DNA from: Thermoproteota archaeon
GTDB lineage: Archaea; Thermoproteota; Bathyarchaeia; Bathyarchaeales; Bathyarchaeaceae
Assembly: GCA_042565955.1 (NCBI GenBank)
Contig: JBHORG010000003.1
Coordinates: 33,328-97,327, forward strand
Direction: 5' to 3'
DNA length: 64,000 nt
A program made the position numbers and the translations under genes. The notes below the pieces were generated by a model, which saw only the letters and a list, made by a program, of their open reading frames with translations, ran no database searches and had not been told where the DNA came from. Of the stretch, positions 5,297 through 64,000 are shown in pieces (the first letter of the stretch is position 1; each line of letters begins with the position of its first letter).

Positions 5297-5471
5297 AATC
5301 TAATTTCTGATACTTTAATCCGTATCTATACAATCAATGTGGCTACAAAACGAATCAACAAATTCCAGAATGCCCAACATAACTAATATTCCTATAATAG
5401 TACTCCATTGGTAAAAACAACTATTTTTCTGAAAAATAAAGAAGCATTAACACTATTCTATAACTGTAAGG

Positions 5472-5563
5472 TGGTGCGGCCGCCGGGATTTGAACCCGGG
5501 ATTGCAGGCTTGGAAGGCTTCCACCGGATATGTCTGTGTCCTACCAGGCTAGACCACAACCGC
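5472..5563 (-). tRNA. tRNA-Gly (UCC) with ~15-nt intron, CCA encoded
   Basis: Reverse complement gives acceptor GCGGTTG/CGGCCGC and T arm CCGGG-TTCAAAT-CCCGG. An anticodon arm CAGGC-CTTCCAA-GCCTG forms only after removing ACATATCCGGTGGAA from inside the 5' stem strand. Confidence 0.7.
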
Positions 5564-5659
5564 ACATGCAAATGAATTGCAATTTAAGACAGTGAACGTC
5601 TTTTATGAATACTCTCTCTATTAAATAACTTTCCAAAAAATCAGATCACTCGAAAGAGG

Positions 5660-5748
5660 TGCGGCCGCCGGGATTTGAACCCGGCTCGTCAGCGTTCCGC
5701 CCTTTTGGGTTGGCAGGCTGATGTCCTTCCAAACTAGACTACGACCGC
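5660..5748 (-). tRNA. tRNA-Gly (GCC) with ~16-nt intron
   Basis: Acceptor GCGGTCG/CGGCCGC. Anticodon stem TCAGC/GCTGA encloses CTGCCA plus a 16-nt insert at or near position 37/38. The T arm is identical to the neighbouring tRNA-Gly. Confidence 0.8.
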
Positions 5749-6134
5749 TTAGGACTGTTTCAAGGTAACTTAGTGCATTTATTTCTTTTCGTAAAAAAGA
5801 AGCTTTCTGTCCCTTTTCTAGTCTACCCGTCAGGGAGAGACTCTGGAATTTTGTGTGTACAACAATACAGACCTTACAGGAGTTTTGATGTCCAAACAAT
5901 AAACTGGGGAATTAGACGCCATAGACAGAACAGAAATATGTTCTCTCTTTGAGCAATTAGAAAAACTTCATATACCTTACACGTTAGCTGTCGAAATAAC
6001 CTGTGACTGCCACGGGATTCTTAAGCTCTCCAAAGTAACAAATAAAAGAACGTGATACCCGCTTATGATGTCTTTTTCACATCTTTTCATGGGTTTCCTA
6101 AAATAACAATTTACTAGAATACTACTGTACATAT

Positions 6135-7127
6135 TTGGGAGGGCAACAACCAGTATTGAATCCAAAAAAAGTGGCGATAATCGTTCTTCTAGCTCTTCTT
6201 TTGTCAACGGCTTTTACAATTCTAAATACAACTTTGGCTCAAACAAATGATCCCCAGAAACAAAAAGCTCAAGCTCTCATGGGCTTTCTAGAGAACAGCA
6301 ACATGAGCATAGTGGTGGCTCTCAATAGATTCGATTCACAGAACATTACAGTGCCATCCGCTGAAACAGCATATAATGAAGGACTTGTACACGCCAAATC
6401 GGCTATTAACCTCTTGAACGAAGAAAAGTTCAGTGAAGCATGCAATGAAGCCGTTGAAGCAATGCAAAAATTCGAAAATGCCTTAAAAATACTAGAATTT
6501 GCCTCTTCAGTGGAACCAACCCCAACAGAGATAACTGCTGAAGAAGCAATCACTTTAAAAGCAAAGATAATTCGAACAATCGAACACTTCGAAAGGTTAG
6601 AAAATTTGACCACACAAGCTTCGAAGGTTGGATACAACACACTAACAATCGAGAAACAACTTAGACAAGTTAAACAACATCTAGAAAATGCGACAGAAAA
6701 ACTATATTCTCTAAACATAGAGGGCGCAGCTGAGGAGCTTTTCATAGCCAAAACATTACTTGATGAATTAACAGAACCCTTTGCCCGGTTAACCAATCTT
6801 GTTAAAGCATCAAATTCTGAGAAGTATCTACAAGAAGCCGAAATCAGAGTCTCCGAAGCTAAGTTAAACATAACACTTTCTGCAACCTTAACACAAGATG
6901 TTAAAAAAGATGCAATAACTGCTCTGAACAATTCGGAAATATACTTAGCAAACGCTAGAGACTTCATAGAAGTCAGCAATGTTGACGAGGCAATTGGAGA
7001 ACTCGAAGAAGCCAAAAAATGGGAAGAAGAATCCAACCGTGCCATAACAGCGGTAACCGATACTCCAAGTTCAGTTGAACCAACAACTGAAAGCATTATT
7101 AAACCAGAAATCTCAACATCGAAGTAG
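6135..7127 (+). CDS. secreted or anchored alpha-helical protein, function unknown
   Basis: Signal/anchor segment followed by a long helical Glu/Lys/Ala-rich sequence; TTG start. Confidence 0.5.
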   Translation: MGGQQPVLNPKKVAIIVLLALLLSTAFTILNTTLAQTNDPQKQKAQALMGFLENSNMSIVVALNRFDSQNITVPSAETAYNEGLVHAKSAINLLNEEKFSEACNEAVEAMQKFENALKILEFASSVEPTPTEITAEEAITLKAKIIRTIEHFERLENLTTQASKVGYNTLTIEKQLRQVKQHLENATEKLYSLNIEGAAEELFIAKTLLDELTEPFARLTNLVKASNSEKYLQEAEIRVSEAKLNITLSATLTQDVKKDAITALNNSEIYLANARDFIEVSNVDEAIGELEEAKKWEEESNRAITAVTDTPSSVEPTTESIIKPEISTSK

Positions 7128-7208
7128 TGGTGCCTTAGTCCTGAATCTACAGTACACAAAAGTTTTAGGCATAAACTTTAAACCTTTTGCTAGAGAAGTG
7201 AAAGCCCA

Positions 7209-8504
7209 TTGAGTAAAAAACGGGCATCCGCCTATCTTACATTCACTTTAATTCTTCTGTTGACACTGACTTCTCAGCAATCATTTTCGGAAGAGACAAC
7301 AGCCGAAACCTTAGTTTTGACAGTTTATACTGACGGTTTTGTGTTTGTTGACTTTTCCATTCTGGTTGACCAAACCTTTCCTACACAGAACATTACAGTT
7401 TTTGGTCAAGTTCTCGAAGACCTTCTTGTTGTCGATAAGGACGGCTTACCCTTAGATTACTCACTAAACAACTCTATACTTAGTGTTTTCAGCCTTGGCA
7501 CCGACGAAACCATCATTACATATCAAACTCAAGACCTCACTTCAAAAGAGGGAAGATACTGGACTCTGACACTTATTGCTCCAATAAATATGCGAATAAT
7601 TTTACCCGAAGAAACCGCAATCATAAGCCTAAACAAAGTGCCAGAAATGATAGAAACAAACAACAATAAAGTAACGCTTCTCATGACTTCTGGTGTAATC
7701 GAAGTAACCTATGTAGTAGGCATCATAGGAACTCAAGTGCACGCGCAAATAGTTCTAGATGACGCTGAAGCTTCTATCATGGAAATCAAGAATTTGGGCA
7801 TCATCGTAACTGAAGCTGAGACAAAACTTCAGGACGCAGAGGACGCTTTTTCTCTTGGAAATTATGCAGAAGCTGAAACTTTGGGAAATTATGTAAAAAA
7901 CTTGGTGATTCAAATTAATCAAACAGCAACTCAAGCCCAGTCCCAAATAATTGAGGCTGAAATCATAATAGCCAATGCCGAAAATGAGGGAAGAACCGAT
8001 GGATTAAATGATGCCAAAGACCTTTTTGATCAGGCTAAACACAATTTTGATCTTGGAGCCTATTTGGAAGCGTTGAGTTTGGCGACTCAGGCATTTTCTA
8101 AAGCTGAAGAATCTAGAATTTCTGTGTCTGATCAACCTGAAAATCTCCTAACACTTGAATTTTTTGGAGTAATGATGATTTCGGCCATCGTTATTTTAGG
8201 CTTCTTTTTTGGTCGGTCAAGAAAGAAACCTAAAGCTGAAGGGAAAAAGAAGAAGCGACTAATAGACTCCGAGCGAATATTTAGAGAACATAAGAATTTG
8301 ATGCCTGAAGAAAAACAAGCGATTCAATTTCTGGTAGACAACAATGGCGAAGCTTTCGAGGCGGAACTCTATGACTACGTTAAGCTTCCGAGAACAACCA
8401 CATGGAGAATGGTAAAACGGCTAAAAGGAATGAACATTATATCCGTGACTAAATTCAGAAGACAAAATCTGGTACGCCTCAAAAACAAATACAATATCAA
8501 ATAA
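7209..8504 (+). CDS. membrane-tethered winged-helix DNA-binding protein
   Basis: Signal peptide, ~300-aa extracytoplasmic part, one TM (FFGVMMISAIVILGFFFG), Lys-rich linker and a C-terminal wHTH-like segment LPRTTTWRMVKRLKGMNIISV. Confidence 0.6.
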   Translation: MSKKRASAYLTFTLILLLTLTSQQSFSEETTAETLVLTVYTDGFVFVDFSILVDQTFPTQNITVFGQVLEDLLVVDKDGLPLDYSLNNSILSVFSLGTDETIITYQTQDLTSKEGRYWTLTLIAPINMRIILPEETAIISLNKVPEMIETNNNKVTLLMTSGVIEVTYVVGIIGTQVHAQIVLDDAEASIMEIKNLGIIVTEAETKLQDAEDAFSLGNYAEAETLGNYVKNLVIQINQTATQAQSQIIEAEIIIANAENEGRTDGLNDAKDLFDQAKHNFDLGAYLEALSLATQAFSKAEESRISVSDQPENLLTLEFFGVMMISAIVILGFFFGRSRKKPKAEGKKKKRLIDSERIFREHKNLMPEEKQAIQFLVDNNGEAFEAELYDYVKLPRTTTWRMVKRLKGMNIISVTKFRRQNLVRLKNKYNIK

Positions 8505-8596
8505 TTGTTCTCTTCTGAAAACTGTTTGCATTGTTTTGAAATTGCCTTTTCGGATCTTTCCATGGATTTCCTAAAGTTATTCCACGATAATTCTTT

Positions 8597-9220
8597 TTGA
8601 CGAGGCTTGAAAAAATGCAAAAGAAAATTGGTATTTCAATAGTTGTGGTGACATTACTTCTCATGGGAGTAATGGCAACTTCAGTATTAGCATTAGACCT
8701 AACATCTGCAAAGAATATCGTTGTTTCAAAAGAGCTAGAAGCAACCGCAACATCAGTGACACCTGAAAGACTTGTATCTGTAAAACCTTACGACTCTTTA
8801 GCATCCGAAACTACTGACGAAGTTTCAATTTACCCAATTCCTGTCGAAATTGGGAGTATACCAGAAGTCAATCAACAGAACCTACGGGATGCTGTGCCAA
8901 ATACCTACGAAGAAGCTGAAACAAGAGTATCAACACTGAGAACTAGATTCCTATTGTATACTCATGATGGTACACACATCATGTGGGGTGTTGTTGGAAA
9001 TAACTACTTCGTAGGCTCAGACAACCTCGGTAAACGATGCTGGGGAATATACGGTAACGGCGTCTTTGCGGGATTCTATGACGGCGAATTCTTCTGGGGT
9101 AACTATCGGGGCGGCAACTGGAAAGCTGAAGGACTCTTCGGACAAAACTATGCGCACGGAAAATACATACTATTTCCAACAGCGGAGATAGCACCAGCAT
9201 TAACGACAGCTGACCCATAA
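8597..9220 (+). CDS. secreted protein, function unknown
   Basis: Signal peptide and a Gly/aromatic-rich C-terminal region; the start may be the ATG at 8615. Confidence 0.45.
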   Translation: MTRLEKMQKKIGISIVVVTLLLMGVMATSVLALDLTSAKNIVVSKELEATATSVTPERLVSVKPYDSLASETTDEVSIYPIPVEIGSIPEVNQQNLRDAVPNTYEEAETRVSTLRTRFLLYTHDGTHIMWGVVGNNYFVGSDNLGKRCWGIYGNGVFAGFYDGEFFWGNYRGGNWKAEGLFGQNYAHGKYILFPTAEIAPALTTADP

Positions 9221-9527
9221 ATACAACCAGTCACCACCCTCTCCCCCTTTTTTCTAAAACCGAAGTTTACCATTAAGTTATCTTCGTTATTGATGAAGGT
9301 AAAACTGTTAATGTAGGTTTTTTGTTTCAAAAGAAACTACCACGCTTAACTCGTACTTGCATTAATGAATAGGATTTCATGTTTAGAGCGCTTTTACAAG
9401 AGAAAATTGAATATTTTATGTTGATTTTGTTCTTTCATTGAAAAATTTTATAAGGCACCCCACCTAATTGGCAAAAGGTTGCCGTATACCGTTATTGTAT
9501 GTGGCAAAGAATTGGAGATGAAACTAA

Positions 9528-11117
9528 ATGAATTTGAGAAGACCAAATGCAGACGAAGCAACCGGTACATTCAATCGATCCAAGAGCGTTACTCCCATGT
9601 CAGGGATCTGTTCAAGATGTGTCGATGGATGTAAAGGCGGTTGCGAAATCTGGTTATCATCATTTAGAGGCCGCGAGGTACTCTACCCTGGACCCTTCGG
9701 AGAAGTAACTGCGGGAGCTGACAAAAACTACCCCATAGACTATTCCCACCTAAACATTCAAGGATACGCTCGCGGAGCTAAAGGGCTTCCAGAAGGCGTT
9801 AAAGCGGACCCAGATACTGCCCTTTTCCCTAAGGTGAACACCGAAACGGATTACGGATGGACCAAAAAGATCAAGCTCAAGGTACCCATATTCACAGGAG
9901 CACTGGGTTCTACGGAAATCGCTCGAAAGAACTGGGAACACTTTGCCATAGGCGCCGCAATATCTGGAATCACACTTGTCTGTGGCGAAAACGTTTGTGG
10001 AATCGATCCTGGACTTGTGCTAAACAGTAATGGAAAGATCACCAAGTCGCCTGAAATGGATAGGCGAATAGAAATCTACAAAAAGTATCATGAAGGTTAC
10101 GGAGAACTCCTTGTCCAGATGAACGTTGAGGACACCCGATTTGGAGTGGCTGAATACGTATCGTCCAAACATGGCTTAGATACAATCGAACTGAAGTGGG
10201 GACAAGGTGCCAAATGTATAGGTGGAGAAATTAAAGTAAAAAGCTTGAATCGAGCTATCGAACTTAAAAAGAGAGGCTATATTGTTTCACCAGATCCTAC
10301 TATTAAGGAGAACCAAGTGGCCTTCAATGAAGGAGCCATTAAAGAATTTGAGCGACACTCCCGTTTAGGCTTTGTAACCAAAGAGACATTCTTAGAAGAA
10401 GTTGACCGTCTCCACGGCTTAGGATTCAAACGAGTTACGTTAAAGACTGGGGCATATTCTGCTTTAGAATTAGCTATGGCACTACGTTATAGTGCAGAAG
10501 CAAAACTTGACCTACTTACAATTGATGGTGCCCCTGGCGGAACAGGTATGAGTCCTTGGCCAATGATGAACGAATGGGGAATTCCAACATTCTATTTGCA
10601 GGCGCTTATGTACAATTTCTGTGAAAAACTTTCAAGCAAAGGCATGAGAGTTCCTGATATAGCTATGGCTGGCGGTTTCTCCTCAGAAGATGGCGTTTTC
10701 AAGGCACTTGCAATGGGTAGCCCCTATGTTAAAGCGGTGTGTATGGGAAGAGGCTTAATGATACCTGGAATGGTTGGAAAGAACATCGAAACCTGGCTAA
10801 GGGAGGGCAATTTACCAAAATCGATTTCAAAGTTCGGTGGTAACGTTCATGAAATCTTTGTTGCCTATGCAGAACTTGAGGAAAAGTTTGGTTCAGACAT
10901 TAAAAACATACCTTTAGGTGCTATTGGAATCTACACTTATGCTCAGAAATTTAGGGTTGGACTCCAGCAGTTAATGGCTGGAAGCAGAAACTTCAACCTT
11001 TCTACTATATCCCGCAAAGACTTGATGGCATTAACAGAAGAGGCAGCAAAAATCTCGGGAATCCCATATGTCATGGACGCATACGGTGAAGAAGCAAACA
11101 GAATACTAGATGAATAA
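9528..11117 (+). CDS. FMN-binding glutamate synthase family protein
   Basis: N-terminal CSRCVDGCKGGC cluster and a GltB-domain-2-like core (DGAPGGTGMSP, GGFSSEDG). Confidence 0.8.
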   Translation: MNLRRPNADEATGTFNRSKSVTPMSGICSRCVDGCKGGCEIWLSSFRGREVLYPGPFGEVTAGADKNYPIDYSHLNIQGYARGAKGLPEGVKADPDTALFPKVNTETDYGWTKKIKLKVPIFTGALGSTEIARKNWEHFAIGAAISGITLVCGENVCGIDPGLVLNSNGKITKSPEMDRRIEIYKKYHEGYGELLVQMNVEDTRFGVAEYVSSKHGLDTIELKWGQGAKCIGGEIKVKSLNRAIELKKRGYIVSPDPTIKENQVAFNEGAIKEFERHSRLGFVTKETFLEEVDRLHGLGFKRVTLKTGAYSALELAMALRYSAEAKLDLLTIDGAPGGTGMSPWPMMNEWGIPTFYLQALMYNFCEKLSSKGMRVPDIAMAGGFSSEDGVFKALAMGSPYVKAVCMGRGLMIPGMVGKNIETWLREGNLPKSISKFGGNVHEIFVAYAELEEKFGSDIKNIPLGAIGIYTYAQKFRVGLQQLMAGSRNFNLSTISRKDLMALTEEAAKISGIPYVMDAYGEEANRILDE

Positions 11118-11228
11118 GGGACACACATTCCTTTCACTTTTTCTTTTTTCATTCCATTTTTCTAATTAATTCAAGGTAGTGCCACAAAGAATATTACTGC
11201 TGATTTTCTCAGTATTTCAGGGATAATA

Positions 11229-11813
11229 ATGAACAGTAAATTGATCGCAGTAGTAATAATTATTGTCGCTGTTATTGTGGTCGGGATTGTTTTTGCGATG
11301 CTATACTTTGGAACTTACAATGACCTAGTGGGACTCGAGGTGACAGTAGATGAGAAATGGGCTGATGTTGAGGCTGTTTTACAGAGAAGGTTTGACTTGA
11401 TACCAAACGTAGTGGATGCAGCTAAACTATACATAGAATATGAAGGGTCGATACTTGAAAACATAACAAGGCTTAGAAGCCAATGGGCAGCAGCACAAAC
11501 AACCGGAAACGAAAATGCTATAGTAAATGCAACAAGTAACCTGGATGCAGGAATATCTCGGTTAATTGTTGTTATGGAAAATTACCCTGAGTTGGAATCA
11601 TCAGAAATAGTACGAGACTTGATTACTGAACTTGAAGGTTCAGAAAACAGGATTTCCACAGAACGTATAAGGTACAACGGTGCTGTAGGAGATTACAACA
11701 GCGCTCGTAGGGTTTTTCCTGCAAATCTTTGGGCCTCAGGATGGGGATTCGAAACTAGGGAATTTTTCGAAGCTAGCATTGGGGCTGATAATCCTCCAGC
11801 AGTAATACAATAA
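11229..11813 (+). CDS. LemA family protein
   Basis: N-terminal TM, then QRRFDLIPNVV and YPELESS motifs characteristic of LemA. Confidence 0.85.
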   Translation: MNSKLIAVVIIIVAVIVVGIVFAMLYFGTYNDLVGLEVTVDEKWADVEAVLQRRFDLIPNVVDAAKLYIEYEGSILENITRLRSQWAAAQTTGNENAIVNATSNLDAGISRLIVVMENYPELESSEIVRDLITELEGSENRISTERIRYNGAVGDYNSARRVFPANLWASGWGFETREFFEASIGADNPPAVIQ

Positions 11814-11842
11814 CCTATCCCAACACACCTAGAGGCGTTCAA

Positions 11843-12628
11843 ATGCTTCACATACCACGAACCATTCTTTTTTTCTTTATATCAATGACAATATTAGTCT
11901 CTTTTTCAACTTCAATTCCAGTTGAATTATTAACTGTCAATGGACAGATAATTTCAAATGACTGGAAAAATGACATTGAAGAGTATCTTCAAGTTGTTGA
12001 TTTGAACACCACTGCTGAGATAGTAATCTATGTTGTTGATTCCCTTTATGATCATGGAATCATGAAAGATGGAAGTGAAATCAATGACCTAGTTCAGCTT
12101 GGAGTATATATATTCAATGAGTTACCTATGGAAACGCCCAGCGGTACAGTAGTTGGAATTGGAAAAAAGGGAAAAGATAACGGTGTTCTAGTTCTTGTTG
12201 TCATGATAGAGCGGGAATGGAGAATCGAAGTAGGCTATGGATTGGAGGGCTACATAACAGACGTAGAATCTAAAAGAATAGCTGAAGATTATTTAGTTCC
12301 AAAATTTCAGGAGGGGGAGTATGGGGAAGGATTGGCAAACACCATTATTGCCCTCGCACTACAGATACCAGAAGTTGATGAAGTGGATCAGATGTCAACG
12401 CGTGGAAGATACGTCTACGATAGCGCAGAATTGCCTGCTGATGAGGAGTTTCCGTGGTGGGTTATATTGTTAATCATTATTTTTGTCCTTGTTATGATTA
12501 GGTTTGGTGGCCGTTTCGGTGGCGGTAGAAGAGGGAGATCTTGGGGTAGTTCAGGTGGTGGAGGTCGCTCTGGAGGTGGAGGAGGCGGTGGAAGTTCTGG
12601 AGGAGGCGGTTCCTCTGGAGGATGGTAA
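11843..12628 (+). CDS. TPM-domain protein with Gly-rich tail
   Basis: Signal sequence, TPM-like core (EIVIYVV, WRIEVGYGLEGYITD), TM and a GGGRSGGGGGGGSSGGGG tail; the usual partner of LemA. Confidence 0.75.
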   Translation: MLHIPRTILFFFISMTILVSFSTSIPVELLTVNGQIISNDWKNDIEEYLQVVDLNTTAEIVIYVVDSLYDHGIMKDGSEINDLVQLGVYIFNELPMETPSGTVVGIGKKGKDNGVLVLVVMIEREWRIEVGYGLEGYITDVESKRIAEDYLVPKFQEGEYGEGLANTIIALALQIPEVDEVDQMSTRGRYVYDSAELPADEEFPWWVILLIIIFVLVMIRFGGRFGGGRRGRSWGSSGGGGRSGGGGGGGSSGGGGSSGGW

Positions 12629-12697
12629 TACTTCACTAATACTTATGTACAATAGAAGCTAATACGTATCAAAAAATCTGCTGATATGTAGAAAACG

Positions 12698-13570
12698 CTA
12701 TTTTGTTGATATTAGCTCTATTTCGAAAAGCTTTGACCACTTTTTTCCAGTCACGAAGAGTCTATCCTCGTTTGGATCATATGCAATTCCGTTTAGTACA
12801 TTTCTAGTAGTCGGATTCACCAAATCTTTGAGACCCGTCAAGTCTATCCGTCCTGTAACCTGACCTGTCTGTGGATCTATTATTACAATCAGGTCTTCTT
12901 TCCAGATATTCGCGTAGATTCTTCCATTAATGTATTCAAGTTCATTAAGCAACTTTACCGGCTCTTCATCATAAACTTCAACCTGAGCAAGGGTCTGGAA
13001 TGTTTCTGGGTCTAGAAAATACAAAGTTTCGTTTCCAACACTCATAATCAACGTACTACCGTTGTGGGTAAGTCCCCATCCTTCAGTGGAATAATTGAAA
13101 GTCTGCAATAACTCAAAGGAGTTTTTGTTATAAACGAAACCTGTGTTGTTTTTCCATGTTAACTGGATTATTTCATCCTCGAAAATTGTGAGGCCTTCTC
13201 CAAAGAAAGTGTTGGGTAAAGAGTAAAGCTGTTTTACGTTGCCTGTTTCCAATTCTACGCGACGTAGTGTAGATTGACCGTAAAGGCCTGTCCCTTCGTA
13301 TAAGACGCCATCATCAAAGACTAGTCCTTGCGTGAATGCATTTTCATCATGGTCATACATATTGACAATCTGGTATGTGTAGTTCAGTGGTTCTAGTTCA
13401 GGCTCAGGTTCAGGATCTGGCTCTGGTTCGGGTTCTGTGGGTACATCAGGTGAAGTATTTGGATCAACTGTGTTGTTACTAAGTAAAACCACCGTAACCG
13501 AAATTGCAGCTATTAAAACCAAGATAATCAGCATAATTGTTATGTGTTGTCGTTTCATGATTGTATCCAA
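12698..13570 (-). CDS. glutaminyl-peptide cyclotransferase (beta-propeller type)
   Basis: FTQGLVFDDGVLYEGTGLYGQSTLRRVELETG and TEGWGLTHNG match the plant/bacterial glutamine cyclotransferase family; N-terminal anchor and a PEPEPDPEPE linker. Confidence 0.8.
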   Translation of the reverse strand: MDTIMKRQHITIMLIILVLIAAISVTVVLLSNNTVDPNTSPDVPTEPEPEPDPEPEPELEPLNYTYQIVNMYDHDENAFTQGLVFDDGVLYEGTGLYGQSTLRRVELETGNVKQLYSLPNTFFGEGLTIFEDEIIQLTWKNNTGFVYNKNSFELLQTFNYSTEGWGLTHNGSTLIMSVGNETLYFLDPETFQTLAQVEVYDEEPVKLLNELEYINGRIYANIWKEDLIVIIDPQTGQVTGRIDLTGLKDLVNPTTRNVLNGIAYDPNEDRLFVTGKKWSKLFEIELISTK

Positions 13571-13875
13571 TAACTTCTGGTAACTCGGCTCTTTTAACAG
13601 TTAATGAAAAAAAATTTGGTATCGCACTTCATCTTAGAAATAGTGAAAGATCTGATAACCTCAAAACAGAAAACTAGCTGAAGTATCTTTTTGTGTAAAT
13701 ACGACTCTGTTGAATCGCTAGAGTTTGTTGCCATCAAGATGTCTCCAATTCTTGTTATCACAATAATGTCGACAAAGACTCACTCAAAAAGCACCATAGA
13801 AAATATCTCCTATCTGTTCCCCTCCATTTTTTGAGTTTAATGGTCTAAAATGTTAAATAGATTTTCCAAGAAACC

Positions 13876-15093
13876 TTGATGTTCCCGGGGGATGTACAGA
13901 TGGAATACTTCCTATTGTTTTTGATTTGGATTGCTGCCGCCTTCTTTTTTCCAGTTATGCTTAGACGATTTCAGATACCCTGGGTAACCGCAGTAATTTT
14001 TGCAGGAATAATCATTGGACCTAATGGTTTGGGTATTGTCAATTCAGGAGAAGTCATGGATTTCCTTGCAACAATAGGGCTTGTTTTCCTAATGTTCACC
14101 GCGGGAATGGATATTAAATTTTCAAAACTAAAAAAAGCAGGAAAAAAGGTGCTGCTCTTTTCTATGGTGAATCTTGGAATTCCCTTTGCTACCGGTTGTT
14201 TTGTTGGAATTTACTTAGGGTTATCCTTTTTTGCATCACTAGTTTTGGGAGTTTGTTTTAGTTCATCATCTGTAGGATTAATCGTTCCAATGTTAAGAGA
14301 GTTGAATCTTAAATCAAAAGTAAAATCAACACTTGTTTCAGCAATATTTCTTGAAGACGTAATTAGCCTTATTCTTCTGGCAATCTTGTTGAAGGCGGTG
14401 GTACCCAATTCTTCGATACCCTTGGAGATTTTTCCAATTGTATTATTAGTATTCGTTTTCGTGGTTCTTTATTTAATACCAATACTTCAAGAATGGCTCT
14501 TTTGGTTTGGACCGTCAAAAGACGTCTTTGCTGGAGGAGTGAGGGCCGTTTTTATCACATTGGCTCTTGTGGCATTAATGGCCGAACTAATAGGTGTTCA
14601 TGCCATGGTTGGAGGATTCTTGGCTGGCTTAACCCTCTCGGATATGCTCAAAAGACGGAAGAAACTTGAACAAAATATCATTGCAATCAGTTACGGATTT
14701 CTAATTCCAATTTTTCTACTTAGTCTGGGAATGACAACAAATATTGCAACGCTCTTTGAACCAGGTGACGCTCTATCAACAGGTTTGATCGTGTTATCAC
14801 TGATAGCAAGTAAATCAGCGAGCGGGTTTCTAGGAGGTCGCCTCCTCGGATTTCCCTCAAGAATCAGCTTGGGAATGGGTGTAATGACAATTGCTCAGAT
14901 GTCAACTACATTAGCGACGGCAAGTTTGGCATTTCAATATGAAATTTTTGATGAAAACATCGTGGCAGCTCTAGTTATTTTGTCAATAATTACCATCATA
15001 ATCACTCCGTTACTTACAAAGTTAATTTTTAGATCGCATAGCGAAAAACCGAGTAAATTTAGTAGATTATGGCGCGGAAACAATGCAAAATGA
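13876..15093 (+). CDS. cation:proton antiporter (CPA family)
   Basis: About 11-12 TM segments and Na+/H+ exchanger-like motifs (LVFLMFTAGMDI). Confidence 0.8.
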   Translation: MMFPGDVQMEYFLLFLIWIAAAFFFPVMLRRFQIPWVTAVIFAGIIIGPNGLGIVNSGEVMDFLATIGLVFLMFTAGMDIKFSKLKKAGKKVLLFSMVNLGIPFATGCFVGIYLGLSFFASLVLGVCFSSSSVGLIVPMLRELNLKSKVKSTLVSAIFLEDVISLILLAILLKAVVPNSSIPLEIFPIVLLVFVFVVLYLIPILQEWLFWFGPSKDVFAGGVRAVFITLALVALMAELIGVHAMVGGFLAGLTLSDMLKRRKKLEQNIIAISYGFLIPIFLLSLGMTTNIATLFEPGDALSTGLIVLSLIASKSASGFLGGRLLGFPSRISLGMGVMTIAQMSTTLATASLAFQYEIFDENIVAALVILSIITIIITPLLTKLIFRSHSEKPSKFSRLWRGNNAK

Positions 15094-15339
15094 CTGTTGA
15101 ATCGTTAATTAGTGACGGACGCATACTATCTACAGTTCATAGATTTATTTTGTGCAATTAACAATTTTATTGTGTGTTGATGAAGCATCTCGTTAGTAGC
15201 GTTAGGCTTCCAATAACCGTGATGATTACACTACCTATTATATAGGTCACCGGATTTTATTATGTACCATTTTGTGGATTCAATTCTATAAAAAAACCAA
15301 CTGAGTTAATATCGTCGGATTATTCCAAGTTAAAAAGAA

Positions 15340-15373
15340 GGTGCCGAGGACCGGACTTGAACTGGCGACGACT
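15340..15373. repeat. attL: displaced copy of the tRNA-Phe 3' end
   Basis: GGTGCCGAGGACCGGACTTGAACTGGCGACGACT matches 20197-20230 at 33 of 34 positions (T versus C at position 24). Confidence 0.85.
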
Positions 15374-16202
15374 ACTTCAATGGTTGATTTAGGCGATTTA
15401 TATGATTTCTTGTTGTTTGCTCGAGCAAAATTGAACTTGAGTCAACTAACTTCTAAGTAATATTTACGAAGAGTCAGGGCCTTTCTTAGAGAAAGAAGTT
15501 CTGTGACTGATAGAGATATTCAAGTTTATATCCAGAAGAAACAGGAAAATTGCGCCCCGTAATATGTTTCTAACAATCATTTCTTCTTTCAAAGCCTATT
15601 TCCGAGGCTACAAGGGTTTGTCATGGATGGATGGTTATAAGCATCCTTCAAGCCCTTTGAAGCTGAAGCCTGAGATAAAAAAAGAAGATGTTAGAAAGTT
15701 CATTGAAGCAATTGACGATCTGGGCGTCAAATGTGTAGCCCTGTTTCTTGCTTCTTCTGGACTAAGACGAGGAGAAGTCCTGGGCCTAAAGAAAGTTGAT
15801 GTTGATAGAGATCTCAGGACTATTGTACCGAATTGTCATTCGGGGCAGACTAAACATTCAGGAATAACTTTCTACAACGAAGAAGCTGAAAGCTGTCTTT
15901 TGGAGTATGAAGAGAAACAAACTCAGAGCGAAAAAGAAAGTGATAGACTTCTACCAGTACGATATGAAAGGTTCTTTTATGCGTGGAAGAGGGCGCGTGA
16001 AAAATCAGCAATATACCTTAAACCTAAGGATATGAGAGATTTCTTCAGTCAAGAAATGGGTAAAGCATTTGTTCCAGATAGATACATTGACGTCTTTCAA
16101 GGTAGAGCCCCTAAAAATGTATTAGCCAAACACTACAATCCTCATGGAATTGCAGTGTTGAAGGAAATCTATGAAAAAGCAAACCTGGAATTTTTTGATT
16201 GA
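15374..16202 (+). pseudogene. tyrosine recombinase (SSV-type-like), C-terminal portion, disrupted
   Basis: The frame entering from attL reads DLYDFLLFARAKLNLSQLTSK-stop-YLRRVRAFLREKSSVTDRDIQVYIQKKQE (core-binding-domain-like). TAA is at 15458-15460 and a +1 frame change lies near 15545-15562. The intact ORF 15564-16202 carries the catalytic region (GLRRGE, GQTKHSG, MRDFF, LAKHY). Confidence 0.7.
16141..16202 (+). repeat. int-end repeat copy 0 (genuine 3' end of the integrase ORF)
   Basis: Core TTGAAGGAAATCTATGAAAAAGCAAACCTG at 16158-16187, encoding LKEIYEKANL. Confidence 0.85.
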
Positions 16203-16260
16203 ATTTTTTTCAAAAAAAAAAACAGAATAATTTCTTTGTTAATAGTAATTCTTGAGGTGA

Positions 16261-16428
16261 TTGTTTTTGAAGGAGTGGAAATGTGTGTCGGTTGGAGATC
16301 ATAAAAATGTTGGCAAGAGGGTTGAGGAATACCAAAAAAATGGTTGGCATCTACATACCTATGCATGTGCTGGAATTGGGGCAATGATGGCTGTTAACCA
16401 TTACTTGCTGTTTGAAAAAGGGGAATAG
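16261..16428 (+). CDS. small hypothetical protein (cassette gene)
   Basis: About 55 codons (TTG 16261 or GTG 16285) ending GWHLHTYACAGIGAMMAVNHYLLFEKGE. Not in the ORF track, and its stop overlaps repeat copy 0b. Confidence 0.25.
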   Translation: MFLKEWKCVSVGDHKNVGKRVEEYQKNGWHLHTYACAGIGAMMAVNHYLLFEKGE

Positions 16429-16457
16429 AAAAAGCAGACTTGAAGGTAATTGGTTAA
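16426..16457 (+). repeat. int-end repeat copy 0b (right half only)
   Basis: TAGAAAAAGCAGACTTGAAGGTAATTGGTTAA aligns with the right half and tail of copy 1 (TATGAAAAAACTGATTTGAAGATAATTGGATAA). Confidence 0.65.
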
Positions 16458-16497
16458 ATCCAATTCTATCAAGACACAGAGTTAATGGAGAGTTTTC

Positions 16498-16655
16498 GGT
16501 TACTCTTTGTTATTGATTTGGAGTTTATGGTTACTTTTAGTTACGTTTTTTTGGATGTTGGGTACTATTTGTTAATAATTTTGATGAAATAATTACTTAT
16601 TGTCACTTTTTCTGTGAATTGTGTTACTTTTTGTGTAACTCTAGAACAAGGCACC
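16498..16655. repeat. degenerate tandem repeat with 31-bp period, about 5 units
   Basis: TACT anchors at 16501, 16532, 16563, 16594 and 16625 are exactly 31 bp apart. Unit starts are TACTCTTTGTTAT, TACTTTTAGTTAC, TACTATTTGTTAA, TACTTATTGTCAC and TACTTTTTGTGTA. Confidence 0.7.
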
Positions 16656-16777
16656 AAAATTATTGTTATAACACCGTTATGTGGTGACATTCTATGTAAC
16701 TAATTCCACAAATAGCCTTCCACCGTGGGTGTAAACTTCTAATCAACTGATAATAATAGTATTAGTAGTGGAAAGAA

Positions 16778-16930
16778 ATGCAGAAACAAAAAAGATTAGA
16801 GTGTTGCGATATAACCTTTAAAACAGAGGAGCATTTCAAAACACATAGAGAAAGGGTGCACCGAGAACCCCTCCCCATCTGGTGCAGAGGCATTATGGGC
16901 GGGTGCGTAAACTGCGGTGGCTGCGTCTAA
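16778..16930 (+). CDS. small Cys/His-rich protein (zinc-finger-like)
   Basis: 50-aa ORF MQKQKRLECCDITFKTEEHFKTHRERVH...CVNCGGCV; not in the ORF track. Confidence 0.35.
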   Translation: MQKQKRLECCDITFKTEEHFKTHRERVHREPLPIWCRGIMGGCVNCGGCV

Positions 16931-16969
16931 GAACCAGCAAGTAATAACCCCTCGATCAACTTTGTTTTT

Positions 16970-17056
16970 TCAATACTTGTGGGACATTACACGGGCTATT
17001 CTCCTGAAGTGTTGAAGGAAATCTATGAAAAAACTGATTTGAAGATAATTGGATAA
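16970..17056 (+). repeat. int-end repeat copy 1 (integrase C-terminal remnant)
   Basis: Translates SILVGHYTGYSPEVLKEIYEKTDLKIIG-stop; core at 17012-17041. Confidence 0.8.
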
Positions 17057-17097
17057 TTAGGTTCAAAAAACCAAAATAACCGTTCCTATCCAAGTAG

Positions 17098-17595
17098 TTA
17101 GAACCTATTAAAGCTAAACATTTTCTCAAACGGTTTCTTCTTTTTTTGTTTTGGCTGTTCGGCAGGATACCCGAAAGTTAATAATGCAACAACTTTCCAT
17201 TTATCAGGGATTTTGAGCAATTCCTTGACTTTTTTTTCTTTGCAAGCTCCTATCCAACATGAACCGATCCCTAAAGCCCATGCAGCAATAACCATGTTCT
17301 GCATTGCAATTGTAGTGTCAACAACGGCCCATTTTCCAGTCAAAAGCGATTTTATGTCTGCACAGCCAACAATGACAACGGGAGCATTTTTAACAAAACG
17401 GGTAATCAAATTATCGCACAAGTTCTTCAGTATATCATGATCATTCACAATGACGAAACGAATAGGTTGTCTATTAGCAGCTGAAGGAGCCTGTCTGCCA
17501 GTCTCAAGAATTTGCTGCAAAACATCTTCAGGTATATCTTTGTTTTCATAGCGTCTAATGCTCCTTCGGCTGAGAAATAAATCAAGAAGAGACAT
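17098..17595 (-). CDS. nitroreductase family protein
   Basis: RRSIRRY, APSAANRQP and the C-terminal GYP motif. Confidence 0.85.
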   Translation of the reverse strand: MSLLDLFLSRRSIRRYENKDIPEDVLQQILETGRQAPSAANRQPIRFVIVNDHDILKNLCDNLITRFVKNAPVVIVGCADIKSLLTGKWAVVDTTIAMQNMVIAAWALGIGSCWIGACKEKKVKELLKIPDKWKVVALLTFGYPAEQPKQKKKKPFEKMFSFNRF

Positions 17596-17659
17596 AAAAC
17601 CTCACTTTGTATTTCAAGCAGCAATACTTAATAATATTTGTGAGTAGGGCAGAGAGTCT

Positions 17660-17755
17660 AGAAACTGTTTGGCTAAAAACTTTGATTCCCATGGAATCGC
17701 CATGTTGAAGGAAATTTATAAAAAAGCAAAATTGACGATATTTTGGAAACAGTAA
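17660..17755 (+). repeat. int-end repeat copy 2 (integrase C-terminal remnant)
   Basis: Translates NCLAKNFDSHGIAMLKEIYKKAKLTIFWKQ-stop, compared with integrase NVLAKHYNPHGIAVLKEIYEKANLEFFD; core at 17705-17734. Confidence 0.85.
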
Positions 17756-17863
17756 TTCAATCTAAATACCTTAGAATTTGTCATATAATTCTAATTTTCT
17801 ACAGACTGTAATAACACGCAGAATTTAAATAGACTTCAAGAAACAACAGTATCAGGGAAAAAA

Positions 17864-18493
17864 ATGTCTTTGGAATCTAACAAAACACTAGGCGGTATAG
17901 GCGCAATTCTGTTAGCAATCCCGTTTCTTAGCTTAATTGGAATAATACTTGTGTTGATTGCTATGAAGGGGATGGGAGACTACTATGATGATGACGACAT
18001 TTTCAAAAATGCACTTTATGGTTTCATTTTTGGTTTCGTCGGAGTTATTGCTTTGATAGCTGTTATCCTAATGCTTGCATTTGGTTTTTCAACCGTTTCA
18101 CCTGTTATCACAGATACTACTGCGATCGGATTTAGTGGATTCGGATTATTCATAATAGCGTTCATTGTACTCTATGTATTCTCTCTGATTGGAGCAATAT
18201 TCTATAGAAAATCGTTGGATATTCTCTCAGAAAAGTCTGGTGAACAAATGTTCAGTACTGCGGGATTAATTTTGCTAATAGGTGCTGCGATACCCGTAAT
18301 AGGTGAAATACTAAAGTTTGTAGCGTGGATATTGGCAGCTGTAGGATTCTTTAATATAAAAAAATCAACTCAGATACCCGAATCAAAAGAACCAGTTCTT
18401 CCAGGTGAAGGAAAACAATTCTGCAAATATTGTGGAGCACCAATTCAACCTGAAGCAACATTCTGTCAAAAATGTGGCAAAAAGATAGAGTAA
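17864..18493 (+). CDS. multi-pass membrane protein (DUF996-like) with C-terminal zinc ribbon
   Basis: The N-terminus is paralogous to ORF 27495-28082 (LSLIGIILVLIAMKGMGDYY versus LSLIGIILLLIGLKGLADFY); C-terminal CKYCGAPIQPEATFCQKCG. Confidence 0.7.
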   Translation: MSLESNKTLGGIGAILLAIPFLSLIGIILVLIAMKGMGDYYDDDDIFKNALYGFIFGFVGVIALIAVILMLAFGFSTVSPVITDTTAIGFSGFGLFIIAFIVLYVFSLIGAIFYRKSLDILSEKSGEQMFSTAGLILLIGAAIPVIGEILKFVAWILAAVGFFNIKKSTQIPESKEPVLPGEGKQFCKYCGAPIQPEATFCQKCGKKIE

Positions 18494-18530
18494 ACCATTA
18501 TTACCCTTTTTTTAAATTCTCTAAATAATT

Positions 18531-18611
18531 AGTCGCCTACACTACACAGATTATTCATCTAAAATTTTGAATGAAATCTATGAAAAAGCAAACCTGAAAA
18601 GCTTAATCTGA
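18531..18611 (+). repeat. int-end repeat copy 3 (integrase C-terminal remnant)
   Basis: Translates SRLHYTDYSSKILNEIYEKANLKSLI-stop; core at 18567-18596. Confidence 0.8.
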
Positions 18612-18744
18612 TTGTATTTTTTTATCTGATAATAAAGAGAAAGAAAAGTTTTTTGACAAAACAGCCAAATATTGTACAAGAATTTAAGATTCATACAATT
18701 TAAAAGCCTTTTTTGGATTATTGTATTAATATATTCTCACCTGA

Positions 18745-19041
18745 GTGACTAAGGGGGTATTACTTATGGAATTGTTCAGAGCTTTATTGGATTCTGGTGT
18801 GTTAATACCAGGTGTGGCTCTAACTTTAGTTTTTTTTGTAGCGTACCTTTTGGTATCTGCAAAGCATTCTATTCCTCTAAGCGTTGATGAGATTGAAACT
18901 TTATGGAAGGCCCATAAGCAATCTACATATTGTAAAGCAGATAATTGGATTGGAATAACTAAAAAGCAGGAAATGATTGGGTATAAATGTGAATGTGGCT
19001 ATAAGCAAATTCAAAAGAAGCCACTTCTTAATTTTAATTAG
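18745..19041 (+). CDS. small membrane protein with Cys motif, function unknown
   Basis: One TM (VALTLVFFVAYLLV) and CKADNW...CECGY; the start may be the ATG at 18766. Confidence 0.4.
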   Translation: MTKGVLLMELFRALLDSGVLIPGVALTLVFFVAYLLVSAKHSIPLSVDEIETLWKAHKQSTYCKADNWIGITKKQEMIGYKCECGYKQIQKKPLLNFN

Positions 19042-19089
19042 AACTTTGATTTTTTTATGTGGACGTATCTCCAAGTCAGTGATAGTGAT

Positions 19090-19172
19090 GCTTTATATTG
19101 ACTATAAACTAAGAACGATTGAAGAGAATTTATGAAAAAGCAAACTTGAAAGTGAAGTTGATTATAATGTGA
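19090..19172 (+). repeat. int-end repeat copy 4 (frameshifted integrase C-terminal remnant)
   Basis: LYIDYKLRTIEE in one frame is followed by RLKRIYEKANLKVKLIIM-stop in another; core at 19119-19148. Confidence 0.75.
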
Positions 19173-19206
19173 GGAAAAATTTCTTTTTTAAGCATGTCTA
19201 CGTTTT

Positions 19207-19374
19207 CTAGTCATTTCTCATTAAATAAATTGGTTTATCCAATTCAAGTTGGCTAACACAGGATTTCAGAAGTTTGTAATATGCCTTTCTTGCTTTTGTT
19301 CTAATTTTTCCTTTCAAAAAAAGTATCTCTTTTTCCATCATATCTATTTCAAATCTTATTGCTTCTTTCCTCAT
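19207..19374 (-). CDS. small hypothetical protein (cassette gene)
   Basis: 55-aa ORF MRKEAIRFEIDMMEKEILFLKGKIRTKARKAYYKLLKSCVSQLELDKPIYLMRND. Not in the ORF track and more protein-like than the listed + strand ORF 19249-19446. Confidence 0.25.
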   Translation of the reverse strand: MRKEAIRFEIDMMEKEILFLKGKIRTKARKAYYKLLKSCVSQLELDKPIYLMRND

Positions 19375-19521
19375 CTTATTAATCAAATTACTTCCCCCAA
19401 AATGAAGAATTTAGTACCAATTAATTCAAAAATCTCCAATAGATAATAAATTTATTGATTTTCAAATCTGTCTTTCTAAACAATATTTTAAATCTGTTTA
19501 TTTGCATGCTGGTTCTCAAGT

Positions 19522-19596
19522 AGACATAATACGGATTTTTCACCAGAGCGGTTGAAGGAAATCTATGAAAAAGCTAACTTGAGATTACTAAAATAA
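19522..19596 (+). repeat. int-end repeat copy 5 (integrase C-terminal remnant)
   Basis: Translates RHNTDFSPERLKEIYEKANLRLLK-stop; core at 19552-19581. Confidence 0.8.
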
Positions 19597-19662
19597 GCAA
19601 CTTACTATCATGTTCAAAACTTAAATATGCCCTGAATGATACAAAGTGCGGGGGAATACTAG

Positions 19663-19944
19663 ATGACTAAGTATGTGGTATCTCTTCCTGCAAAGTGGGA
19701 ACAGTTTCTTGTAGGTTTAGCCGATGATCACCAAGTTGATCTGAATAGCGTCGTCAATGAATTGTGCACATGGGCCTTTTCTAATTCCGAAATAAAGAAA
19801 CAGTTTGAACTATTGTTGGATGATGCTTTTCCCCCAATGGGTGAAGTTGCAGACAAAGCAAGGGCGGCTGGAGAAGAAATCGGCATGAATGAAGAAGAAA
19901 AGGAAGAAGAATCTGAAGAGGAATCTCACGATCATAGAGACTGA
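19663..19944 (+). CDS. small acidic protein, function unknown
   Basis: 93 aa with a highly acidic tail (EEEKEEESEEESHDHRD). Confidence 0.45.
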   Translation: MTKYVVSLPAKWEQFLVGLADDHQVDLNSVVNELCTWAFSNSEIKKQFELLLDDAFPPMGEVADKARAAGEEIGMNEEEKEEESEEESHDHRD

Positions 19945-20008
19945 GACTTTATCATAATTGAACAATTATTCTGGGAGAACTTCTCAAAGTTGAAGACTAC
20001 CACAATAG

Positions 20009-20196
20009 AGAAGAAAAACAACTGTTAGTCTTTATCTTACTAAAGAAACTGTTGAACGGGCACGTTTTCATAACTTAAATCTTAGTAGAATTGCAGAACA
20101 AGCGTTAATCAGCATTTTAGACTATTTAGAACCACAAAACAACAAACAAAGCTCAAACTTTCTTGGCACAGGTTATCTTCTGAAAGAAAGTGTAAT
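20009..20196 (+). pseudogene. open frame reading into attR: putative Int(N) part with ribbon-helix-helix-like segment
   Basis: No stop from 20009 into the repeat. Reads KTTVSLYLTKETVERARFHNLNLSRIAEQALISILDYLE...ESVMVPRTGLE in the same codon phase as the frame leaving attL. No canonical start codon before the ATG at 20195. Confidence 0.4.
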
Positions 20197-20301
20197 GGTG
20201 CCGAGGACCGGACTTGAACCGGCGACGACTCGGTCTTCAGCTTCACCCTCAACAATGTTTATTGTTGAGTCGAGTGCTCTCCCAGTCTGAGCTACCTCGG
20301 C
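20196..20301 (-). tRNA. tRNA-Phe (GAA) with ~29-nt intron, CCA encoded
   Basis: Acceptor GCCGAGG/CCTCGGC and D arm GCTC-AGACTGGGA-GAGC. Anticodon arm CTCGG-CTGAAGA-CCGAG forms after removing ACTCAACAATAAACATTGTTGAGGGTGAA, which contains a perfect 9-bp hairpin. T arm GCCGG-TTCAAGT-CCGGT. Confidence 0.8.
20197..20230. repeat. attR: att core inside the functional tRNA-Phe
   Basis: GGTGCCGAGGACCGGACTTGAACCGGCGACGACT spans CCA through the T arm to the variable loop of the tRNA. Confidence 0.85.
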
Positions 20302-20871: not shown

Positions 20872-20966
20872 TGGTGGGCCCGGCCGGATTTGAACCGGCG
20901 ATCTCTTCCGCGTGAGGGAAGCGTCTTTTGGCCTCAAAGGGAGTTAACCAACTGGACCACGGGCCC
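20872..20966 (-). tRNA. tRNA-Val (CAC) with ~18-nt insert in the D arm, CCA encoded
   Basis: Acceptor GGGCCCG/CGGGCCC, intact anticodon arm CTTCC-CTCACGC-GGAAG and T arm GCCGG-TTCAAAT-CCGGC. There are 36 nt between position 9 and the anticodon stem instead of about 18. Confidence 0.75.
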
Positions 20967-63830: not shown

Positions 63831-64000
63831 GAATTATTATGCGCACATTATGAGAATGTACCAGGAAATTAAGAAGAATCTAAGATGAGGTAAACCTAAG
63901 TGATAATATAAACTTCCATCTTTTTTCTAGAGTTAAATTGTACCCCCCAAACCCACAACGTTTTCAACAAATCCAAATGAAGGCTACAGGAACTGTGAAA

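Follow-up and report, generated by a model that had tools for sequence, protein, structure and literature searches.

The stretch of DNA under study (the window) comprises 64,000 nt of contig JBHORG010000003.1 from a Bathyarchaeia archaeon (assembly GCA_042565955.1). It contains an integrated element of 4.9 kb (15340–20301), inserted at the 3′ end of a tRNA-Phe gene, in which a tyrosine integrase gene (int) is followed by an array of seven cassettes with one main open reading frame (ORF) each. The cassettes are bounded by direct repeats of a core of ∼30 bp that corresponds to the 3′ coding end of the integrase gene itself. On balance the array is probably a cassette platform that has this 3′ coding end as its insertion site, with each cassette supplying a new integrase tail. 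The locus was compared with 99 related loci (L numbers below) from Bathyarchaeia genomes and metagenomes, among which 49 elements could be evaluated. The integrase gene, its true 3′ end and the cassettes are as follows.

15341–16202, plus strand: tyrosine integrase pseudogene of the A family, Phage_integrase/Phage_integr_3 type (Pfam, three-frame translation)
16158–16191, plus strand: core c0, the true int 3′ end (LKEIYEKANL); the tail EFFD and its stop end at 16202
16181–16435, plus strand: cassette 1, with the c0 tail, a likely degenerate half-core and a tiny ORF (16261–16428); ends with the right-half core c1, GAAAAAGC (16428–16435)
16436–17034, plus strand: cassette 2, with the c1 right half and tail KVIG plus stop (to 16457), a Cys/His-rich ORF (16778–16930), a B-type integrase remnant from 16983 and the c2 left part (17012–17034)
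17035–17727, unstranded: cassette 3, with the c2 right half and tail CTGATTTGAAGATAATTGGATAA, a nitroreductase gene (17098–17595, minus strand), an A-type remnant from 17648 and the c3 left part (17705–17727)
17728–18589, plus strand: cassette 4, with the c3 tail TIFWKQ plus stop, a membrane protein with DUF996 and zinc ribbon (17864–18493), a B-type remnant from 18538 and the c4 left part (18567–18589)
18590–19141, plus strand: cassette 5, with the c4 tail KSLI plus stop, an ORF (18745–19041) of 98 amino acids (aa) with one transmembrane segment and a Cys-rich end, and the c5 left part (19119–19141)
19142–19574, unstranded: cassette 6, with the c5 tail KVKLIIM plus stop, a small helical ORF (19207–19386, minus strand), a B-type remnant from 19523 (Tyr to Asn) and the c6 left part (19552–19574)
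19575–20014, plus strand: cassette 7, with the c6 tail RLLK plus stop and an acidic protein ORF (19663–19944)

Each cassette begins with the right part of a core (RRAYYTGAAR), continues through 4–7 tail codons and a stop, and extends to the left part of the next core, which terminates in GAWAARGC. The left part is usually preceded by 7–270 nt of integrase-like sequence, of which cassette 5 has hardly any; the remnant of cassette 3 is 34 codons long with a Tyr to Phe change. At c0 the exchange point would fall after 16180, between GAAAAAGC and AAAC. An earlier note on this sequence had assigned one small gene to each module, including a nitroreductase and a DUF996 protein with a zinc ribbon, and the Pfam matches agree (5e-34 for the nitroreductase, 2e-25 for DUF996). 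No exact database record of either of these two window proteins was found. Cassette 1 is also present in L019 and L099, joined directly to GAAAAAGC and then AGATTA, and the DUF996 cassette is found at other positions and in other arrays in L017, L019, L012 and L002.

Six full and one or two half copies of the core are arranged head to tail between 16158 and 19581, all on the plus strand, with core-to-core spacings of 270, 584, 693, 862, 552 and 433 nt. The 30-nt sequence TTGAAGGAAATCTATGAAAAAGCAAACYTG occurs with three mismatches or fewer at 16158, 17705, 18567, 19119 and 19552, compared with no occurrence in 100 shuffled sequences. The copy at 17012 has five mismatches and was located, like the right-half core c1 at 16428–16459, by repeat finding and a position weight matrix (PWM). 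The same-orientation copies of the int 3′ end described in the earlier note are thus real. Translated in the core frame, c2 reads GHYTGYSPEVLKEIYEKTDLKIIG, c3 GRESRNCLAKNFDSHGIAMLKEIYKKAKLTIFWKQ, c4 LHYTDYSSKILNEIYEKANLKSLI, c5 ERLKRIYEKANLKVKLIIM and c6 RHNTDFSPERLKEIYEKANLRLLK, each followed by a stop; all are C-termini of related tyrosine recombinases, as had been claimed. The stop of each remnant lies 4–7 codons past the core, rather than the 5–9 first given. The C-termini at c0 and c3 have the A flavour AKHYNPHGIAVLKEIYEKANL, and those at c2, c4 and c6 the B flavour HYT.YSPE.LKEIYEKANLK. The catalytic residue is changed in c3 (Y to F) and c6 (Y to N), some remnants contain internal stops, and T-rich stretches follow several of the tails. 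A search of the window with full integrases (tblastn) found no N-terminal or central integrase fragments between the copies. An A-rich run, TCAAAAAAAAAAACAGA (16205–16223), precedes the tiny-ORF cassette and aligns with ATGAAAAAGCAGA of L019 and L099; it is likely that an extra degenerate half-core lies at about 16213–16223, giving an ‘empty’ interval of ∼30 nt after c0. Near the end of the window a further PWM match (63869–63902, score 20.8) has a translation that is not integrase-like, and is probably due to chance.

The integrase contains just two Pfam domains, Phage_integrase (PF00589) and Phage_integr_3 (PF16795). The latter scores 30.4–33 bits against a cut-off of 27 in the window protein and in the homologues P0003, P0159 and P0138. 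The earlier note had overlooked that the gene is a pseudogene; three-frame translation reveals TAA stops at 15458–15460 and 15560–15562 and a +1 frameshift near 15572–15575; the catalytic part is still open (ORF 15564–16202). The frame is intact in a syntenic sister strain, L017, with flanks 92% identical to those of the window. There are 229 database homologues of ∼287 aa, which come from Bathyarchaeales wherever an organism is named. Full-length integrases exist for three families, of which A and B are 31% identical, while the C-family integrase of L010 is 33–34% identical to the A family. All three carry C-terminal L(K/R)xIYxKAxLK. Flavour B was at first considered a site confined to cassettes, no full-length HY.DYSPE integrase having been seen among 120 homologues and the 99 loci, and a word-indexed search having returned only short A-type ORFs. 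An exhaustive profile search recovered full-length B-family integrases, and the B remnants are the ends of real integrases. A degraded A-family integrase was also found at 9787–10217 of L100, on a 155-kb contig of GCA_038883485.1 (labelled Candidatus Jordarchaeaceae, an Asgard archaeon); either the family extends past Bathyarchaeia or this contig is mis-binned.

The arrangement recurs in the related loci. All 153 matches to the core PWM in the 99 loci are co-oriented with int, and 86 of the 87 non-integrase matches to an nhmmer model of the integrase 3′ region lie on the int strand. Integrase-3′ remnants are present in 15 of the 49 evaluable elements, and every array has the int 3′ end on one side and a tRNA gene of the minus strand on the other. 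The larger arrays have 5 (L019), 7 (L080), 4 (L006) and 3 (L073 and L017) cores; L093 is also among the relatives with arrays (range 3–10 cores). Two arrays are without an intact integrase nearby, L012 (10 cores, 5437–12954) and L013 (7 cores, 7616–15909). The L012 array adjoins a tRNA-Gly gene (13274–13350), with a 23S rRNA gene ∼6.6 kb away. Neighbouring cores are a median of 810 nt apart and usually enclose one main ORF, which may face either way; the cargo includes nitroreductase, NUDIX, GNAT, MFS, flavodoxin, flavin reductase, rhodanese, peptidase M16 and SNase genes. The remnants always retain the 3′ end of int and are truncated at the 5′ side, a shape that random decay of whole genes would not yield. 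Their median length is 84 nt, and 62 of 66 are ≤170 nt, of a gene of ∼860 nt. Remnants of three integrase families are mixed in the arrays. The core of a remnant is closer to the integrase core of its own array than to those of other integrases (mean percentile 0.29, Wilcoxon p = 1.5e-4).

Remnant-free relatives (L003 13473–15272, L066 12814–14442, L028 and L029) carry, instead of accessory cassettes, a plasmid-like module of a 540–600-aa P-loop protein and a ∼110-aa protein beginning MVLLTLVDGKKGP. A viral origin was also considered, and no relatives were found in IMG/VR. In hot-spring relatives a one-gene insertion of ∼360 nt stands right behind the integrase tail in L033 (1712–2072), L036 and L007 compared with L042, L049 and L054; it terminates in a weak sequence resembling a right half-core, AAATTCAAAAGG, and may represent the same process without a recognisable remnant. 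In public protein sets many ‘proteins’ of 35–150 aa (P0121–P0137, P0139–P0285) are integrase-3′ remnants called as genes, some of which are annotated ‘intergrase/recombinase’ (spelling of the source), and the matches to the B-type profile number 148 clusters at 50% identity.

Pairwise comparison of related loci shows where the arrays differ. The window and L017 are 92–97% identical through 16187 (c0 end) and then unrelated, over stretches of 830 and 497 nt. Similarity returns at 17018 inside c2 and is maintained at 97% to 18599 at c4, beyond which the sequences are again unrelated. L073 and L093 are 96–97% identical elsewhere, with a 944-nt cassette in one place opposite a 68-nt filler; the switch points are exactly between positions 23 and 24 of two successive cores. 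The integrases of L073 and L075 differ at 12–26 positions per 100 nt up to core position 5, but at just 3–8 per 100 nt from the core through the tail and first cassette. L099 is without the Cys/His cassette, and there the tiny-ORF cassette meets the nitroreductase cassette via a single half-core, where the window has the cassette bounded by c1 and c2. The nitroreductase cassette brings its own right half-core and tail (CTGATTTGAAGATAATTGGATAA) and has a different left neighbour in each of five loci: a full-length integrase of the B family in L104 and of the A family in L025, the c2 remnant in the window, a half-core in L099, and non-integrase DNA with core positions 7–22 in L017. L104 and the window are 70% identical over the 27 nt before the core and 93% past core position 23. 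The tiny-ORF, DUF996 and peptidase M16 cassettes recur in several arrays and positions.

These junctions were analysed one by one; a raw histogram of the end points of high-scoring segment pairs was dropped because what it mainly reflects is the point where integrase homology trivially ends. The junctions with the best resolution agree on core positions 22–24, and all resolved junctions fit one exchange point, between GAWAARGC and RRAYYTGAAR. The downstream cassette takes with it the right core half and the tail, in line with the replacement C-terminus envisaged in the earlier note, while the integrase-like flank and the left half go with the upstream one. Its other expectations can be judged from the same comparisons. 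Between related loci the change in identity falls inside the 34-nt core, and the set of cassettes that this core delimits differs from one related genome to the next. Sharp identity boundaries had been looked for; the switch within the core is defined, but the 5′ edges of the remnants are variable. Comparative genomics thus shows the architecture, its recurrence, the presence/absence and swapping of cassettes, and the confinement of breakpoints to the core. To judge from these alignments, it is highly probable that cassettes are exchanged by recombination at the core.

The array is carried within one integrated element, with the order attL, int, cargo, conserved arm and attR/tRNA, where att denotes an attachment site. 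The features outside int and the cassettes are as follows.

15340–15373, plus strand: attL, an antisense 34-nt copy of the tRNA 3′ end that also codes for int residues VPRTGLELATT (∼11); direct repeat and match to an att hidden Markov model (HMM)
20015–20196, plus strand: conserved arm inside attR, matching at 72–89% identity the DNA next to attR in many elements that differ elsewhere
20197–20301, minus strand: attR and the intron-containing target tRNA-Phe(GAA), with the att identity block at 20197–20230 (Rfam)

The array is flanked by a 34-nt direct repeat (15340–15373 and 20197–20230, 97% identical, from repeat finding), of which the right copy forms the 3′ end of a minus-strand tRNA gene at 20199–20301 (Rfam RF00005, 46.3 bits). 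The sequence reads tRNA-Phe(GAA). Because the gene contains an intron, ARAGORN did not detect this target on the window. An integrase at one end and tRNA 3′ direct repeats at both ends, one of them in an intact tRNA, are the marks of a tRNA island, and the same layout is found in L002, L004, L008, L019, L067, L074 and L080. The att HMM places two att sites, and no more, in each element: attL where the integrase starts, and attR at a tRNA gene on the minus strand (tRNA-Phe, tRNA-Val or tRNA-Gly). The earlier note was correct that no att copies separate the modules, but overlooked the tRNA repeats that bound the whole array.

The integrase homologues begin VPRAG(L/F)EPATT, which is the antisense translation of a tRNA 3′ end, and the att site therefore lies within the first 11 int codons. 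The start codon overlaps the CCA end of the tRNA, and residues 1–11 are derived from the 3′ end of the acceptor and T-arm. Such N-terminal coding of att is found in >100 A-family homologues (P0003–P0120) and in B-family P0155, P0156, P0159, P0165 and P0169. With att at the extreme start the integrated gene remains whole, and it is intact beside attL in L017, L019 and many others. The stretch of ∼180 nt just inside attR is kept at 72–89% in L002, L019 (8423–8634), L061, L065, L067, L074, L080 and L091, in which the cargo is unrelated. This stretch probably serves as the P arm of attP, or else as the integrase promoter region once the element is circular; in that form the putative P arm would stand just upstream of the integrase start. 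The G+C content of the array region is 0.33–0.36, compared with about 0.38–0.43 in the surroundings. A second, neighbouring tRNA gene, tRNA-Ala(GGC) (20872–20966, minus strand, 95 nt long), also appears to bear an intron.

The mechanism proposed for the platform is that cassettes would be gained, lost and exchanged through recombination of one core with another, the crossover falling within the 8-bp centre GAWAARGC or beside it. A cassette would leave as a circle with one core and could re-enter at any core; entry at c0 would swap the last 8–11 residues of the integrase and shift the previous tail downstream. The SSV-related (Phage_integr_3) tyrosine integrase of the element would catalyse these steps, using its own 3′ coding end as an attI-like site. 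Since no fewer than three integrase families have the same cores (A, B and C, about 31–35% identical), cassettes would circulate among elements with different integrases and tRNA targets. Whether the integrase is the catalyst stands close to evenly balanced. Its involvement is suggested by the position of the array, the strict polarity, the precision of the junctions, shared sequence of only 8–16 nt in half-cores, and analogy with Thermococcus and Int-pTN3. In Thermococcus, host homologous recombination is reported only for ≥500 bp, and the related archaeal integrase Int-pTN3 recombines short non-att homologies, of which 100 bp are needed (PMC5495485). By this analogy host homologous recombination is unlikely as the agent. 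More tentatively still, and with doubt slightly outweighing confidence, the system may be an independently evolved archaeal counterpart of the integron, in which SSV-related integrases capture single-gene circles at their own 3′ coding end, with cassettes passing among tRNA-integrated elements of Bathyarchaeia and across families that are ∼31% identical, and with the tail rewritten at each capture.

A number of observations weigh against such a platform. With two TAA stops and a frameshift in its N-terminal part the integrase gene of the window is, as read, an inactive pseudogene, and owing to this inactivation the platform in this window is probably frozen. No remnant is present in 34 of the 49 evaluable elements. 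The comparison rests on assembled contigs, mostly from short-read metagenomes, and no circular cassettes or excision junctions were observed in the contigs compared. The core was examined as a pseudo-att, since ACTTGAA at its right end corresponds to the tRNA T-loop within att, yet there is no co-variation across 60+ loci; the resemblance was dropped as evidence, and recognition of the core by the same integrase is on this ground no more than putative.

Further observations count at once against the platform and in favour of its one serious rival, which is nonetheless unlikely. Here the remnants would provide portable homology without a dedicated site, and swaps between short int-3′ remnants would be made by host RadA or by a homology-tolerant integrase activity, the remnants themselves having first arisen when one element inserted into another, or beside it, and illegitimate deletions followed. 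The core is the longest perfectly identical tract available for homology-driven exchange between diverged partners. It also codes for a C-terminal peptide that is kept from one integrase family to another, and its conservation is partly at the protein level; its family-wide variation falls at third codon positions. Inspection of the core sequence reveals no dyad symmetry, and the six cassette boundaries have no excess single-strand structure on either strand (z −1.1 to +0.1 compared with shuffles) and no common hairpin. Apparent breakpoints scatter from core positions −5 to +34, which fits one crossover point but does not prove it. The 5′ edges of the remnants are ragged (7 to about 270 nt), and some module junctions lie outside cores: the Y/X junction of L074 (2300) and L072 (2609), compared with L075 (1197) and L073 (2381), is at an ATG(C/T)GAA(C)TC microhomology. 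For the rival there is also Int-pTN3 as a precedent for homology-like recombination by an archaeal integrase. However, the shared tract is just ∼30 nt in many junctions, and 8–16 nt for some cassettes (c1; positions 7–22 in L017), far under the 100 bp of Int-pTN3 and the 500 bp of the Thermococcus host. The agreement of the best-resolved junctions at positions 22–24 also argues for a defined site, and intermediates with two full integrases or an internal att were seen in none of the 49 elements.

Decay of tandem or nested elements would make each module a stump of integrase 3′ end and cargo with no mobility of its own. Real full-length A, B and C integrases of which the remnants are genuine pieces, the few longer stumps (residues 192–283 in L013, 218–290 in L080 and 221–284 in L012), and the fragmented integrases known from tRNA-linked islands such as those of tycheposons are all consistent with it. 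This explanation is largely refuted and now very improbable. No array has att or tRNA fragments between its modules (att HMM, E up to 10), a second full-length integrase of the same family is found in none of the 49 elements, and nearly all remnants (the 62 of 66 noted above) are short pieces that always include the 3′ end. The earlier note had likewise judged simple tandem integration a poor fit, and had asked for eroded fragments as a sign of it; between the copies there are no att copies or large integrase fragments, and the remnants have their median of 84 nt. Flank and post-core sequences have different histories (70% versus 93% identity; 12–26% versus 3–8% divergence), one cassette stands behind five left partners, and presence/absence differences of single cassettes are located at cores.

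It is just as improbable that the repeats are kept for another function, as expressed peptides mimicking the integrase C-terminus or as terminator or regulatory signals, with recombination incidental. Many remnants are called as ORFs of 35–150 aa in databases, and several tails are followed by T-rich stretches. Against this, most remnants have no start codon or have stops and catalytic changes (Y to F, Y to N), half-cores exist, and the cassette genes face either way relative to the repeat. The least probable explanation, that strain ‘swaps’ are chimeras created at the 30-nt core in metagenome assemblies, can draw on the predominance of short-read contigs among the comparison loci and on a repeat common to strains and elements, but a ∼30-nt repeat is well below the final k of k141-labelled assemblies (to judge from contig names), long arrays occur on large contigs (L002, 776 kb; L012, 146 kb; L013, 82 kb; window, 64 kb), and identical arrangements are found in independent samples (L004/L075/L091, L072/L074 and L069/L071).

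The cassette platform resembles an integron in several respects. A tyrosine-recombinase gene stands beside an array of mostly single-gene cassettes of 0.3–2.6 kb, each bounded by a repeated recombination site, the first of which adjoins the integrase gene like attI. Close relatives hold different cassette sets, and one and the same cassette turns up in more than one array; the accessory genes are similar (GNAT, NUDIX, nitroreductase and others), and the integrase-less arrays L012 and L013 are comparable to clusters of attC sites lacking integron integrases (CALINs). The archaeal integrons described by Ghaly et al. 2022 use the same IntI/attC machine as bacterial ones (PMC9668308). Here, by contrast, the integrase is of the Phage_integr_3 type and not IntI: the integron-integrase model NCBIfam TIGR02249 has no match to A-family P0003 and gives 27.4 bits, against a cut-off of 265, for B-family P0159. 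The repeats are linear copies of the int 3′ coding end rather than folded attC hairpins, and the insertion point is within the integrase ORF, so each cassette rewrites the tail of the enzyme. Cassette genes lie on either strand in the window and its relatives, while integron cassettes are mostly promoterless and co-oriented, with a common Pc promoter. The whole platform is moreover itself a tRNA-integrating element with attL and attR. Because the tests for IntI, attC hairpins and co-oriented cassettes fail, the system is not an integron. The term ‘integron-like’ used in the earlier note applies to the geometry alone, since the defining parts are absent.

Other recombinase-based systems share single traits with it. 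Recombinase-less modules bounded by tyrosine-recombinase sites are known from the site-specific accretion of cis-mobilizable elements (CIMEs) and IMEs (integrative mobilizable elements) beside ICEs (integrative conjugative elements), and as pdif/Xer modules on Acinetobacter plasmids. These build up or are swapped inside a mobile element or alongside it, as are the cassettes here, but their sites are ordinary att or dif sites outside genes, whereas here the site is the coding end of the recombinase gene in archaeal tRNA-integrated elements. In the shufflons of IncI plasmids (Rci/sfx), tyrosine-recombinase sites lie in coding sequence and alternative protein C-termini are exchanged, as here; those sites are inverted and flip pilV segments, while here they are direct repeats that concern the recombinase's own tail and unrelated cargo genes. 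Integration by an SSV-type integrase splits its gene into int(N) and int(C). The SSV-type (type I, ‘suicidal’) integrases, in which attP lies within the ORF (Badel et al. 2021, PMC8371274), share with the present ones the Phage_integr_3 domain, an att inside the int frame, and integrase-gene fragments that mark recombination joints. In the present elements, however, att is at the extreme 5′ end (codons 1–11), so that integration does not split or inactivate the gene, and the fragments are 3′ ends, unrelated to the tRNA att, inside the element rather than at its borders. The model NF040815 for XerA, the archaeal chromosome-dimer resolvase, gives 45–84 bits against a cut-off of 220, and the gene is also within an att-bounded element. 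The tycheposons of Prochlorococcus (bioRxiv 10.1101/2020.12.28.424599) are likewise small elements with an inward tyrosine recombinase, inserted at tRNA 3′ ends, with an optional replication module and variable adaptive cargo, in islands that hold fragmented integrases. Those islands stack whole elements separated by partial tRNAs, none of which is internal here, where the repeat comprises solely the last ∼30–170 nt of int and is the place at which single genes are exchanged. In the literature searched on Bathyarchaeota integrases, archaeal integrons and tyrosine recombinases, integrated elements of Thaumarchaeota, tycheposons and aloposons we found no account of arrays whose boundaries are copies of the integrase's own 3′ end, in agreement with the earlier note.

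To our knowledge, integrons are the one well-understood machine for collecting and reshuffling single genes in prokaryotes. In Bathyarchaeia, an abundant sediment lineage, this locus and its relatives suggest a second route to single-gene capture that employs other parts: an SSV-related integrase, a linear site of ∼30 bp that is the coding end of the integrase, and a tRNA-integrating carrier. Co-oriented integrase-3′ cores are a simple marker by which cassettes of accessory genes can be found in uncultured archaea. Should the integrase prove to be the catalyst, a poorly studied group of integrases would have a defined and testable site (GAWAARGC and its arms), and the many ‘integrase/recombinase’ mini-ORFs of 35–150 aa in metagenome annotations would be accounted for. 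The recombination site and the C-terminal tail of the recombinase would then be the same DNA, tying the capture of cargo to the sequence of the enzyme.

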